DNA of 64,000 nt from Candidatus Saccharimonadota bacterium (GCA_016176605.1 JACOWW010000002.1:41432-105431); one strand, 5' to 3'; numbered from the stretch's first letter, positions 14,710-63,860 are shown. Notes: generated by a model from the letters alone, not told the origin. Numbers and translations are program-made.

Positions 14710-16341
14710 GTGATACATGGTAAAAGGAAATCAAAAGTGTCCGCTGGCCGCAGACGCTCCATAGATGGAATTGTATCTGATGGCCGCCGTCTGGGCGTTC
14801 CTTCTGCCGAGCCGTTTCACCCGCATAGTCAGACGGATACACTTGGCGGCAGTCTGCGCCGAGCTGAAGGCTTTCATCCCATGCGCTCCGGCTCGGGCAG
14901 CATTGGGGTAACGGCCGCTGCGGCCGAAAACAGCTTAGCGCTAGACGAACCTATCGTTTTAGACGAACCGGCACTCGGTAAAAAAGAGCGGAAAAGTTCT
15001 CGTTTTTTTCTGCGAAAAATCGGGCTCAAACGGACCGCACTAACGCTTTTGGCTATTTTGCTGGCCGGCGCGCTGTTTTTAGGTATCAAGTTTTATATAA
15101 CAGAGCGGAACCTGTTCCGCGGCGGCGGCGGCGCGCCGGCACTGGCTTCTGACATAGATATCAACAAACTCAAGGGCGAAGGTGACGGCCGTATCAATAT
15201 CCTGGTTTTGGGTATCGGCGGTCCCGGGCATGAAGGCGCCGACCTGACCGATACAATAATGATGGCCAGTATTGACCCCATCAATAATCAGGTGGCACTG
15301 CTAAGTTTGCCGCGCGACCTTTGGATAAAAATACCAGGTAATGGCTCGCAAAAGGTTAACGCCGCTTTTGCCTATGGCAAAGAGGGCTCAAAAAGTAAAA
15401 ATCTTATTGACCAGCAAAGAGATGGGCTGGCCTTGCTCGACAAAGCGCTGACCCCCGTTATCGGTATACCTATCCACTACCATGCGGTTATTAACTTCAA
15501 GGCTTTTTCTCAAACCGTCGACGCCGTTGGCGGGGTTAGCTTTAATGTGCCCGAAACTCTTTATGACCCTAGCATTGCCTGGGAAAACAAGGGTAATCCC
15601 ACGATTGCCCAAAAAGGCCTGCAAAGCTTCAACGGGCAGCGCGCGCTACTATACGCCAAATCGCGCGAAACCTCTACCGATTTCGCCCGCAGCCAACGCC
15701 AGCGCCAGCTGATGGTCGCCCTAAAAGATAAAATACTGTCGGCTGGGACTTTTTCTAACCCAATAAAAATATCGCAGCTGCTCAGTAGTTTTGGCGACAA
15801 TATTTATACAGATTTTTCACTCAACGACATAAAGCGGCTATATGAAATTATCTCGAAGATCCCGTCAAAAGATATAAGTTCACTGGACTTGGTAACGCCG
15901 CCACACGACTTATTGACCACTAATGGGTTAAACGGTTTTTCCGTCGTCCAGCCTAAAGCCGGGCTTTATGAATACGGGCCATTGCAAAACTATATCCGTA
16001 ACGCCCTGCGGGATGGCTTATTGACCCGCGAAAACGCGCCGGTCGCTGTTTACAACGCAACAGACATAGCGGGCCTGGCCACCAAACAGGCAGATGTCCT
16101 CAAATCTTACGGCTATAACGTAACGGCCGTCGACAGCTTGCCCAAAGCGACAAATCCAGCCAAAACAGCATTAGTCGACCAAAGCGGCGGCTTGGCTAAG
16201 TACACTCGTCACTATCTCGAACAGCGGTTTAGTACCATAGCCCAAGACAGTCTATCTAAAAACGTAGGTGTATCACCGCCGGCTGGGACCAAATTTGTTA
16301 TAATTCTTGGCAAAGATGCCACGACCTACGCACCGCAATAG
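14710..16341 (+). CDS. LCP (LytR-CpsA-Psr) family protein with LytR_C domain
   Basis: TM helix, INILVLG, LTDTIM, SLPRDLW, DFARSQRQ; C-terminal VYNAT..GLA. Confidence 0.9.
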   Translation: MIHGKRKSKVSAGRRRSIDGIVSDGRRLGVPSAEPFHPHSQTDTLGGSLRRAEGFHPMRSGSGSIGVTAAAAENSLALDEPIVLDEPALGKKERKSSRFFLRKIGLKRTALTLLAILLAGALFLGIKFYITERNLFRGGGGAPALASDIDINKLKGEGDGRINILVLGIGGPGHEGADLTDTIMMASIDPINNQVALLSLPRDLWIKIPGNGSQKVNAAFAYGKEGSKSKNLIDQQRDGLALLDKALTPVIGIPIHYHAVINFKAFSQTVDAVGGVSFNVPETLYDPSIAWENKGNPTIAQKGLQSFNGQRALLYAKSRETSTDFARSQRQRQLMVALKDKILSAGTFSNPIKISQLLSSFGDNIYTDFSLNDIKRLYEIISKIPSKDISSLDLVTPPHDLLTTNGLNGFSVVQPKAGLYEYGPLQNYIRNALRDGLLTRENAPVAVYNATDIAGLATKQADVLKSYGYNVTAVDSLPKATNPAKTALVDQSGGLAKYTRHYLEQRFSTIAQDSLSKNVGVSPPAGTKFVIILGKDATTYAPQ

Positions 16342-16489
16342 CAAAGCACCCAGCAAAGCTGGCCGCTTTGCTATTGCTTCTGGCGCACTGCTGTGTCAGA
16401 AACTGCGCTGCTCGCTCACTGTATGTCAAATACAGCTCCCTCCACTGCTCGTTTCTTCCTTGCATTGCATCCAGATGCGTAAGTCGTGG
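16319..16489 (-). repeat. dispersed ~160-nt structured element, family A copy 1
   Basis: Core GGATGCA..CAAGGAAGA..GAGCAG..TAT..ATAC..GAGCAGCG..TCTGAC..GCGCCA shared with five other loci; terminal stem CCACGACYTACGCA. Confidence 0.8.
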
Positions 16490-16529
16490 TTTCACAAGAT
16501 TTATCCTAATTTGAAACCGGAGTTATTTG

Positions 16530-17282
16530 ATGCGCTCTATACTTCCTAACAAATTTAAACCAGCCAAGGGCTTTTCGCACGCCATCCACATAGCGCTACT
16601 AGCTCTTTTGCCAATCCTGGCTTATATCTTAGTGCGTATTAACTTTGTGTCTGTAGCCATCGGTCTAACTCTGATTAGTAAGTGGCGAATTGTAGCCGTA
16701 AGGCCCCGGTACTGGCTAGCCAACTTTATAGCTAACGGTGTGGATATAGTGGTCGGCGTTTCGTTTATTATATTCATGAGCAACACCTCAGTGACCTGGT
16801 GGCAACTGTTCTGGACTTTTCTTTACGCCGCATGGCTGATATGGCTTAAGCCTAGAAGCGATGTCTTGAGCGTTTCGGCCCAGGCTATGGCCGGTCAGCT
16901 GCTGGGGTTGGCTGTCATCTACCTTAAATTCGGCGACGCTTCTTTGGCGGGGCTGGTAGCGGGTACTTGGGCAGTGACTTACTTGGCCGCCCGCCACTTT
17001 CTGGCCAGCTTCGAAGAACCCCACACGGCTCTATTGGCGCACGCCTGGGCCTTTTTTGGGGCTTCGCTGGCGTTTGTCTTGGGCCACTGGCTGCTTTTTT
17101 ACGGCACGGTAGCCCAAACAATCGTCATTTTAACGACTATTGGCTATTGCCTGGCGGCACTTTACTATTTGGACGCCACGCAGCGGCTGAGCGCCTCCCT
17201 GCAGCGACAGATGCTGAGCATTATGACTGCTATATTAGTTATAGTGTTGGTCCTTTCCGACTGGACCGGCAGCACCGTCTAA
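16530..17282 (+). CDS. multi-pass membrane protein of unknown function
   Basis: ~250 aa, many hydrophobic segments. Confidence 0.8.
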   Translation: MRSILPNKFKPAKGFSHAIHIALLALLPILAYILVRINFVSVAIGLTLISKWRIVAVRPRYWLANFIANGVDIVVGVSFIIFMSNTSVTWWQLFWTFLYAAWLIWLKPRSDVLSVSAQAMAGQLLGLAVIYLKFGDASLAGLVAGTWAVTYLAARHFLASFEEPHTALLAHAWAFFGASLAFVLGHWLLFYGTVAQTIVILTTIGYCLAALYYLDATQRLSASLQRQMLSIMTAILVIVLVLSDWTGSTV

Positions 17283-17289
17283 CAACGGT

Positions 17290-17622
17290 GCCGTTATCCA
17301 TTTTCCATTTACCTTTTACCCCAGCACTAAATCTTGAAGCTCCATAATCTGCATGCCATGGCGACATGCCGTGGATTGCAGACTACTACGCTCAGGCTTT
17401 AGTGCGGGGCAGGCCATACATTTACCATTAGCCCCTCCTTCACCACCTCCTTCGCCAAAAAGCTTCGGAAGGTCAAGAAGGTTACGGAGGGCAGGCATTA
17501 ACCATTGAGCTTCATGGATAACGGTAAACCCAGCACTTAGCTTAAGTATCTTAGAGACTCGAGCTAAGTGCTGGGTAAACGGATAACGCAGGGTGAACGG
17601 TGAATGGTGAAAGGTAAACGGC
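17290..17622. repeat. composite nested repeat region
   Basis: 7-bp periodic arms at both ends, two CCCAGCACT-bounded hairpins and a CCTTCGC..GCTTCGG..GGCAGG palindrome inside. Confidence 0.65.
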
Positions 17623-62600: not shown

Positions 62601-63301
62601 AACATCGTCAATTCACTACAAAAGGCATAATCCTGGCCCGGACAGACTTCGGTGAAGCTGATCGTATCTTAACTTTCCTGACGCCGGACCATGGAAAGGT
62701 GCAGGCTATCGCTAAAAGCGTGCGCAAAAGTCAAAGTAAATTAGCTGGCGGCATCGAATTATTTTCTGTCAGTGACCTGACGTTGATTGTTGGACGCGGC
62801 GAAATCAACACGCTTATTTCTTCGCGGCTAGTTAGACACTGCGGAAATATCGTCAAAGACCTTGGGCGCACCAAGCTGGCCTACGAATTCCTAAGGGTTA
62901 TAAACAAGGCCACCGAGGACAAACCAGAAGAGGCTTACTTTAAACTGCTGGGCGGGAGCCTAGAAGCGCTCGATGATCTGGAGCTCGAGCCAGAACTAAC
63001 AGCGCTTTGGTTCGACATGCAGCTTTTGAAGCTAGCCGGCCATATGCCTAACTTACGCACCGATTCTTACGGCGCCAAGCTGACGAAGGTAAAATCGTAT
63101 AGTATTGATTTGGAAAAAATGCGCTTCGAACCCCGCCCGCAAGGAACCGGTTCATTTACTGCGAATGATATTAAATTTTTGCGTCTCGGTTTTAGTGCGT
63201 CTAAACCTCAGACTATTCATAGAATAAATGGCGCGGACAAAGTAGCTGTTGTCTGCCAGCCCCTTATCCAAACCATGCTCAAATCCCACGTTCGCACATA
63301 A
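62597..63301 (+). CDS. recO: DNA repair protein RecO
   Basis: GIILARTDFGEADRILTFLT..GKV..IAKSVRK. Confidence 0.95.
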   Translation: MKHRQFTTKGIILARTDFGEADRILTFLTPDHGKVQAIAKSVRKSQSKLAGGIELFSVSDLTLIVGRGEINTLISSRLVRHCGNIVKDLGRTKLAYEFLRVINKATEDKPEEAYFKLLGGSLEALDDLELEPELTALWFDMQLLKLAGHMPNLRTDSYGAKLTKVKSYSIDLEKMRFEPRPQGTGSFTANDIKFLRLGFSASKPQTIHRINGADKVAVVCQPLIQTMLKSHVRT

Positions 63302-63354
63302 ACTTAATTCGCAATAAGATTCCGCGTTAGGTCGGTGGATCTAATTGTTGTTTG

Positions 63355-63576
63355 CTAAGCCACTCTTCGGGATTCGGGCGCAGAATTATTGCGGACAAGC
63401 ACTAGTCGAGCGACAGCTTGCTTGCCAACATCATGCGCAAATTCAGCTCTATCTTGTTCTACAGCTACTGTTGGAGGTTCATTAGCTTCTCGTCGAGCTC
63501 TAGTCTCTTTATGCTCTAGTTGATGATTAACGCTGTCAAAAAAGTTATGTTGTATACGGTTGCCTGGTGAGCGCAT
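63355..63576 (-). CDS. hypothetical protein
   Basis: 73-aa ORF with ATG, no recognisable motif. Confidence 0.4.
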   Translation of the reverse strand: MRSPGNRIQHNFFDSVNHQLEHKETRARREANEPPTVAVEQDRAEFAHDVGKQAVARLVLVRNNSAPESRRVA

Positions 63577-63707
63577 GTTTATTTTCTTTCAATCTTACAA
63601 TATGTTTCATTATATCACTTATGCATTGCTAATGCAAGGCAAAAATAGCCGTAATTTACTAAAACGTTTATAATCTGTGCTTAAGATGATTAAAGTAGGA
63701 ACGAAAC

Positions 63708-63860
63708 GCTTGCATTTGGATTTAGAAGCTGTTTTCTTGGCGAGCAACGGAGTGAGACGTACGGGAAGGTACGTTGAATGAGTAGCGCAGACAAAAAACA
63801 ACTTATGGACCAAAGGGCTGGCGGGTTTCAGGCTCCGCCTGGGAGCAGGTCAGCCGGTGC
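63708..63860 (+). repeat. family A structured element, copy 6 (at the glyQS 5' end)
   Basis: Shared core; terminal stem GCTTGCA..TGCAAGT. Confidence 0.75.

Follow-up and report, generated by a model that had tools for sequence, protein, structure and literature searches.

Saccharibacteria and other Patescibacteria have genomes that are among the smallest and most gene-dense of the free-standing bacteria. In one of them, a 64,000-nt stretch of DNA from a Candidatus Saccharimonadota bacterium (GCA_016176605.1 JACOWW010000002.1:41432-105431; hereafter the window), an earlier note made from the sequence alone had described a structured element of about 160 nt in six copies, and had proposed it as a candidate mobile or regulatory RNA family. 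The question raised by this locus is what such an element might be, i.e. an RNA module that serves its host, a coding module, an intron-like RNA or a piece of mobile DNA. In this paper, we have analysed the element in the window, in the 728-kb genome that contains it (G000; 89% complete) and in related genomes. We conclude that it probably represents a family of structure-conserving, non-autonomous insertion elements in Saccharibacteria that has apparently not been described before and that is functionally analogous to the Rickettsia palindromic elements (RPEs).

Copies, fold and insertion status of the element

G000 was searched with a profile made from the six window copies, and a covariance model was built from its 18 full copies. 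The genome contains 19 copies, of which 18 are full (167-178 nt) and one is truncated; in the window, exactly six matches to the model were found at E <= 1 (125-171 bits). All six copies of the earlier note are real and had been placed within 1-2 nt of their ends, except for copy 6, which had been drawn 7-11 nt short at each end; the count of six holds for the window and not for the genome. When bounded by their closing helix, copies 1 to 6 are 171, 174, 178, 171, 171 and 171 nt long, and their mean column identity is 63%. They fold into a three-way junction of the closing helix, P1, with two hairpins, the long and irregular P2 and the GC-rich P3, and the internal loops of P2 carry the conserved purine-rich motifs CAAGG, GAG.AGCG and GA..GAG.AGCG. 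Both the shared motif string and the covarying central stem that had been noticed before are visible in the alignments.

The covariation itself is present far above chance in a six-copy and in a 79-copy alignment. In the six-copy MAFFT alignment, 49 of the 70 predicted pairs show a compensated double change. The larger structural alignment, drawn from G000 and 40 relatives, comprises 83 model-aligned copies, of which 79 are distinct; among the distinct copies, 93.7% of the cells are standard-paired, compared with 67.9% in column shuffles (none of 500 reaches the observed value), a margin that is very large even though the alignment was fitted to the model and favours structure. Sliding the 3' partner by 1-3 columns leaves only 28-41% of the cells paired, and changes on both sides occur in 58 of the 60 pairs. 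Furthermore, G-U or U-G cells are far more numerous than A-C or C-A cells (358 versus 61), which indicates that the pairing is selected on the strand as drawn. The predicted fold of the copy in the der gene has an energy of -83.3 kcal/mol (z -6.2) in the sense and -71.3 kcal/mol (z -3.1) in the antisense orientation. Selection on the fold acts on the sense strand, and the G-U excess makes RNA, rather than single-stranded DNA, its most likely target. In Rfam, the window gave no match at gathering score, and 12 copies searched at E <= 1 returned one chance-level small nucleolar RNA match (E 0.85); a full match to an already described family, an outcome that the earlier note had allowed for, was not found in Rfam, Pfam or NCBIfam.

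The clearest view of the unit comes from sites where it is missing. The Der protein of G000 has exactly 57 extra residues relative to all 19 related orthologs compared, i.e. 171 nt, which is the whole element with both P1 arms. The UvrD site is empty in five of five relatives examined, and so is one Mur ligase site (5/5). In strains about 90% identical to G000, contigs from four of four sequencing runs skip copy 3 by joining position 48966 to 49154 with five other letters between, and contigs from three runs (X5, X6 and X8) skip copy 5, position 55769 being followed by 12 or 36 other letters and then by 55959 or 55961; these joints were accepted at 80% likeness with short sides of 24-27 nt, and such joints can mislead. 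At copy 4, 142 other letters replace positions 55284-55495 in relatives. The closest metagenome relatives in the empty-site scan, 69-82% identical at the protein level, were too distant to fix boundaries, but the scan yielded extra copies. Compared with close relatives, the element is an indel in its entirety, and it is best read as an insertion element rather than a discrete RNA gene: since copies are present or absent among close relatives and lie between genes in both orientations, a conserved RNA gene is not what we are looking at. The mobile family suggested in the earlier note is borne out to this extent, as the element behaves as an insertion.

Partial alignments of MurB and UvrD had hinted that one P1 arm might be pre-existing host sequence. 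As a general rule this was rejected: in Der the indel and the complete element coincide, and neither arm is present in the contigs in which copies 3 and 5 are skipped. UvrD gives an ambiguous picture, its net insertion falling about 18 nt short of the element, and the insertion sites in both UvrD and MurB are variable among orthologs.

The family extends well beyond this genome. The model matched 373 times in 37 of the 41 same-order relatives, with 1-37 matches per genome, and gave no match in the remaining four (G004, G017, G027 and G037; 76-93% complete). In a class-wide sample 69 of 151 genomes had matches, and in a phylum-wide sample 13 of 151, where G000 and members of its order account for four. 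Phage and plasmid collections gave no match. Outside the order, the model often matches over about 140 nt, or over P2 alone (about 96 nt; model positions 26-121), which suggests a modular super-family of related hairpin elements. The truncated copy in G000 (C2:13498-13610) has kept the 5' arm of P1 and P2 and has lost P3 and the 3' arm, and its P2 is nearest (0.91) to that of the copy at C7:223884. A literature search that did not cover subscription journals and supplementary files found no published description of such an element in Saccharibacteria or Patescibacteria. We are apparently dealing with an undescribed family of folded insertion elements of about 171 bases that is widespread in Saccharibacteria.

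Copies inside genes and at gene boundaries

Six copies in G000 lie inside long open reading frames of the same orientation. Four of them interrupt conserved Pfam domains in frame, namely the KH-like domain of Der, the first helicase domain of UvrD/PcrA and the C-terminal domain of two Mur ligases; the other two are located just upstream of the true starts of rpsF and of a pilin-like gene. For a broader count we used 74 full copies, i.e. the 79 distinct rows of the structural alignment minus five partial matches shorter than 164 nt; this sample comprises all G000 copies, one locus per relative, namely that with the highest score, and up to 30 loci of G001-G003. A copy was called genic if it was stop-free and flanked by at least 40 open codons on each of its two sides. 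By this definition 12 of the 74 copies are genic, all 12 of them sense and none antisense; 11 of the 12 use one anchored frame, and in 11 of the 12 the number of nucleotides is a multiple of three. Of the 62 non-genic copies, 26 have such a length, and the used sense frame is stop-free in 18 (29%) and carries stops in the other 44.

The used frame encodes hydrophilic peptides (Kyte-Doolittle -0.73) in which Gly, Ala, Ser, Gln, Glu and Arg abound; in the peptides of the antisense frames (-0.01 to +0.31), Leu, Cys and Pro are more frequent. The mean column identity of the in-frame peptides is 55%. A database search with a single peptide returned only two matches owing to a word-index limit. With a profile of 11 in-frame peptides, 37 proteins belonging to about 20 housekeeping families were retrieved from the database at E <= 1e-3. 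Where a source is named, these proteins come from Saccharibacteria, Saccharimonadales or Patescibacteria, and in all 37 the public gene calls read through the insert. Hosts of in-frame copies in the relatives include an S1-domain protein, Fpg, FolD, LigA, a class-I aminoacyl-tRNA synthetase and a methyltransferase, and the Fpg copies stand at one profile position in two genomes of different families. No Pfam or NCBIfam match was obtained for four in-frame peptides, even at E <= 10. In an AlphaFold2 model of G000 Der (20-row alignment; mean predicted local distance difference test score, pLDDT, 69.1), the insert at residues 400-457 scores a pLDDT of 25-41, is devoid of secondary structure and is flanked by two confident beta strands of the KH-like domain (390-397 and 462-468); the low score of the insert may only reflect that no other alignment row covers it. 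We infer that the genic copies are translated rather than excised. On the other hand, the entropy by codon position is flat (1.09, 1.05 and 1.10), so that the family does not evolve as coding sequence; it evolves as a nucleic-acid structure and not as a coding module.

Der orthologs of relatives carry the module at other places as well, before residue 15 in G014 (C1:90331-90498) and around residue 60 in G033 (C4:39918-40073). In G027 and G031, Der has a different in-frame insertion of about 108 nt near residue 310, which the module peptide does not match.

The non-genic copies are found close to genes, with 43 of the 62 touching an open frame of at least 100 codons. Contacts at the 3' edge number 41, in 22 of which a sense gene starts there, and in 19 of which an antisense gene reads in and stops; the 5' edge has 10 contacts. 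One copy in the leader of rpsF is common to three genomes, and its arms are conserved. The gene-edge pattern might reflect targeting or survivorship in a genome with very short spacers.

Arms, means of spread and rival explanations

The closing helix has a peculiar history. Its outer 9 bp are 0.27-0.38 (about 35%) identical between copies whatever the identity of their cores, while the identity of equally variable core pairs rises from 0.26 to 0.73 with core identity (with only six pairs in the top bin); the Spearman correlation with core identity is -0.03 for outer P1 and 0.27 for the variable core pairs. The only conserved part of the ends is a short inner inverted repeat, about CGCA...TGCG. 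[quoted passage not shown] In 16 same-locus pairs across genomes, arm identity reaches 0.89 with a mean of 0.50, and the mean for variable core pairs is 0.40. By these comparisons, the outer helix follows the locus and not the lineage of the core, and arms and core have separate histories. Copies are also mosaic: in one same-genus pair the flanks, the arms and an unusual P3 are kept and P2 comes from another lineage, and in another pair the flanks and core are kept and the arms are unrelated.

P1 arms as target duplications were rejected, as direct and inverted flank copies were as frequent as in permuted sequences. In the 74 copies, neither direct nor inverted target duplication was found, the words shared between arm and flank and between flank and flank being equal to permuted controls with one exception, in that the flanks are slightly complementary to each other (4.31 versus 3.84 ± 0.11 permuted). 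Different loci share arms slightly more often than in a column-shuffle null (134 versus 114 ± 10 pairs at >=0.67), and in G000 copy 1 and the copy at C6:52042 share arms; these two results weaken the idea that arms are made de novo at every insertion. We read the arms as belonging to the element and turning over fast by compensated change, in addition to module exchange between copies; alternatively, they may be rebuilt at insertion.

A gene that could mobilise the element was sought among three families. Neither RVT_1, Y1_Tnp nor TnpB had a match in G000, other transposase families being outside this search. Across 41 genomes, copy number correlates poorly with Y1 transposase genes (Spearman 0.16) and with reverse transcriptase (RT) genes (0.22), seven of the 15 genomes with at least 10 copies have neither, and the model finds no match beside the Y1 or RT genes of the relatives. 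With no co-occurrence and no adjacent element, RT, Y1 transposase and TnpB were rejected as mobilisers. The Y1-transposase genes of the relatives (about 206-240 aa; 1-6 copies in 14 of the 41 genomes) are themselves bracketed by perfect palindromes about 650 nt apart, e.g. L144:1225-1273 and L144:1945-1983 in G002, and L145:1274-1304 and L145:1935-1965 in G035. This arrangement is similar to that of repetitive extragenic palindromes (REPs) and their REP-associated tyrosine transposases (RAYTs), and the palindromes are unrelated to our element (model score <=15 bits).

Taken as an insertion element, the unit of about 171 bp with P1, P2 and P3 is added to the chromosome in one piece. Its copies persist in two settings. 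In short spacers they occur in both orientations, are usually in contact with a start or stop codon and often provide a Shine-Dalgarno-like stretch or the stop itself; inside genes they occur only if sense, in one frame and of a length divisible by three, where the element would be translated into a hydrophilic and probably disordered loop of about 57 residues at a tolerant surface position. Our best guess is that spread and reshuffling may take place via host recombination on the folded single strand, helped by natural competence, which has been reported for a Saccharibacterium (PMC10187176). The element is presumably selfish.

Several points weigh against this reading. The joints that skip copies 3 and 5 have the short sides and the low likeness threshold given above, and the 74-copy sample is non-random and holds same-locus pairs, its counts being not independent. 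As G000 is 89% complete, a mobilising gene could lie in unassembled DNA. Selfish DNA in decay would not be expected to conserve its fold in place so strongly, which hints at some function, or at a renewal that goes on continually. Translation through a fold of -83 kcal/mol in an essential mRNA would also be odd, and the low pLDDT of the Der insert may have the trivial explanation mentioned above. Moreover, the antisense frames of non-genic copies are stop-free in 31-47% of cases, compared with 29% for the used sense frame, and therefore stops do not explain the sense-only bias; by our own arithmetic, a purely stop-based filter would yield about 28% sense. Peptide tolerance would be the likeliest filter behind the sense-only rule.

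The rival explanations differ in what they take the selected entity to be. If the 57-residue peptide were a mobile protein-coding module and the nucleic-acid fold its by-product, the recognisable conservation of the peptide, by which its profile retrieves 37 proteins, would follow; however, there is no codon periodicity, 44 of the 62 non-genic copies are stopped in that frame, the covariation and G-U bias show selection on base pairing, and the peptide is predicted to be unstructured and has no Pfam or NCBIfam domain match, so we regard this explanation as very improbable indeed. Somewhat less improbable, and still hard to credit, is an intron-like behaviour, in which the folded RNA would excise itself from transcripts, or be cut out by a host enzyme at the closing helix, and the exons would be rejoined with the protein unaltered. 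The strand-specific fold, the invariable sense orientation in genes, a closing helix that brings both junctions together and an orientation bias unexplained by stop codons all suit this idea. But splicing needs neither a length divisible by three nor an open shared frame, each of which is found in 11 of the 12 genic copies compared with 26 and 18 of the 62 non-genic ones; furthermore, many copies lie antisense between genes, and no intron or ribozyme in Rfam is matched.

We also doubt that the element is a hairpin transposon, i.e. single-stranded DNA of the REPIN type or derived from IS200/IS605, moved in trans by a Y1 (HUH) transposase. Its strand-specific structure, the lack of target duplication and of conserved long terminal inverted repeats, and the Y1_Tnp genes of 14 of the 41 relatives, often in several copies, would all be expected of one, but there is no Y1_Tnp in G000 (19 copies), G038 (37) or G010 (19), whereas G017 has three Y1 genes and no copy; in addition, the correlation with copy number is as low as 0.16, the Y1 genes have their own unrelated palindromes, and the abundant G-U pairs would suit RNA better than DNA. 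Two further explanations are unlikely to about the same degree, and slightly less so than the hairpin transposon. One of them is a host-serving RNA module (a stabiliser, a processing site or a translational control) that spread by duplication and entered genes by accident. It would account for the preponderance of 3'-edge over 5'-edge boundaries (41 versus 10), for the GGAGG and AAGAGG stretches 7-9 nt before start codons in the 3' arms of copies 3 and 5, for the shared rpsF-leader copy and for the conservation of the fold in place; yet strains about 90% identical lack copies 3 and 5, and the same genes work there, both orientations relative to the neighbours occur, four of the 41 relatives have no copy at all, and in-frame copies are spread over about 20 protein families. 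The other is movement or renewal without a transposase, in which a folded single strand, either RNA or DNA acquired by competence, would be pasted in by host recombination or repair, the terminal helix being rebuilt or re-paired at each site and P2 and P3 swapped between copies; the strand-specific fold would then be what is recognised, and the sense-only rule would result from transcription coupling and not from peptide tolerance. A non-autonomous, structure-conserving insertion element thus remains the reading that we consider probable.

Window copies and comparison with known repeat elements

The window copies illustrate the contacts with genes. Copy 1 (16319..16489, minus strand; 171 nt, 171.3 bits) is antisense to both neighbour genes, and the LCP-family gene (14710-16341, plus strand; Pfam LytR_cpsA_psr) enters it by about 23 nt and has its stop codon inside the copy. 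Copy 2 (27638..27811, minus strand; 174 nt, 165.8 bits) is likewise antisense to both neighbours, and supplies the stop codon of a CAAX-protease-like gene (26849-27643, plus strand) that ends 6 nt within it. Copy 3 (48976..49153, plus strand; 178 nt) belongs to a subtype with a continuous helix in place of the CAAGG internal loop. It is placed between a release-factor gene (47847-48950) and an FtsE-like ABC-ATPase gene whose ATG, at 49154, it abuts directly, and a GGAGG in its 3' arm stands 9 nt before this ATG. Copy 4 (55330..55500, plus strand; 171 nt) lies shortly after pyrG (53703-55316), with a helix extendable to 55321-55508, and the rpmA stop codon (55497-55499, minus strand) is inside its 3' arm. 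Copy 5 (55768..55938, minus strand; 171 nt) is sense and lies in the spacer between a methylase-like gene (55949-57268, minus strand) and rpmA (55500-55769, minus strand); it ends at the rpmA ATG and has an AAGAGG in its 3' arm. Copy 6 (63701..63871, plus strand; 171 nt, 125.3 bits), of the same subtype as copy 3, is located about 400 nt downstream of recO (62597-63301; Pfam RecO). The earlier description of the closing helix as copy-specific and overlapping gene boundaries is confirmed, with stops in copies 1, 2 and 4 and starts at copies 3 and 5.

Other repeats and length differences also occur in the window. The spacer after the ABC-ATPase gene (49835-50021) contains at least five tandem GTTTACC-like heptamers and an inverted partner, and relatives have 47 other letters in place of these 187 nt; the letters that stand in for copy 5 in relatives are heptamer-like too. 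At 59651-59752, near the end of the open reading frame 58528-59682, relatives swap 100 nt for 27-34 letters with a GGTAG/GGAGTAG-like repeat, so that this gene end is length-polymorphic. Positions 2574-10106 (plus strand) form a single open reading frame of 2510 aa.

The closest parallel to the element is found in Rickettsia. According to the account in PMC10969869, RPEs are about 150 bp long and comprise several families, each with a peptide that is conserved, almost half of the copies being in frame in unrelated genes. The likeness lies in a dispersed, hairpin-capable repeat that occurs both between genes and in frame in unrelated housekeeping genes, to which it adds a conserved peptide, and which has a reduced genome as its host and lacks its own transposase (PMC10969869 for the RPE side). 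As for a dispersed palindromic repeat of about 100-150 bp, we found units of 171-178 nt in 19 G000 copies with a predicted fold of -83 kcal/mol, and as for frequent in-frame insertion in unrelated genes, 12 of 74 copies and 37 proteins of about 20 families. NCBIfam contains RPE models. The resemblance to RPE-1 that the earlier note had seen in one translation holds for the behaviour, i.e. residence in frame inside essential genes, and is not supported for the sequence, since the four in-frame peptides searched against NCBIfam and Pfam, the copy-3 peptide not among them, had no match. The two also differ in phylum and, with no family match, show no sequence relationship. Features of the present element are its strand-specific covarying three-way junction, the sense-only single-frame genic copies, the closing helix that tracks the locus and the mosaic cores.

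Bacterial MITEs such as Correia/NEMIS, ERIC, BOX and RUP are, in the same source, described as short, non-autonomous, multi-copy and foldable, providing promoters, ribosome sites or terminators at gene ends and being occasionally in frame (PMC10969869). Our element is likewise short, non-autonomous, multi-copy, foldable and often at gene ends. MITEs are defined by terminal inverted repeats that are conserved and by the target-site duplications that a cognate transposase generates, whereas the outermost helix of this element differs in every copy, and neither a target duplication nor a cognate transposase was found. REPs are 20-40 nt long, REPINs are REP doublets, and both are associated with a single RAYT gene flanked by REPs. 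The present element has in common with them that it is a hairpin repeat in which structure, and not a long sequence, is conserved, and that it has no target duplication; however, the RAYT-like arrangement in some relatives uses different palindromes and does not co-vary with it. In fungal mitochondria, mobile GC clusters, double-hairpin elements and translational-bypass (byp) elements are small structured insertions in the genes of a compact genome that are tolerated with no removal at the DNA level. The ribosome skips byp elements, for which neither an open nor an in-frame sequence is required, whereas the genic copies studied here are open, in frame and of a length divisible by three, which points to read-through.

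If the above reading is correct, at least 20 housekeeping families of these bacteria, among them Der, Mur ligases, UvrA, UvrC, UvrD, LigA, DnaG, FolD, Fpg, TsaD and TsaE, carry a translated-looking 57-residue insertion made by a nucleic-acid parasite. For annotation this means that such insertions resemble lineage-specific protein loops and inflate apparent divergence, and for structure prediction that models of the host proteins must allow for an inserted loop; it also bears on the origin of new protein segments. The clean strand-specific covariation makes the family a good test case for what selects the fold in a repeat without a known enzyme, and its strand-specific three-way junction, sense-only rule and decoupling of arms and core are features worth following. 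If the comparison with RPEs is true, selfish DNA in protein-coding genes would have arisen in a second, unrelated lineage with reduced genomes.

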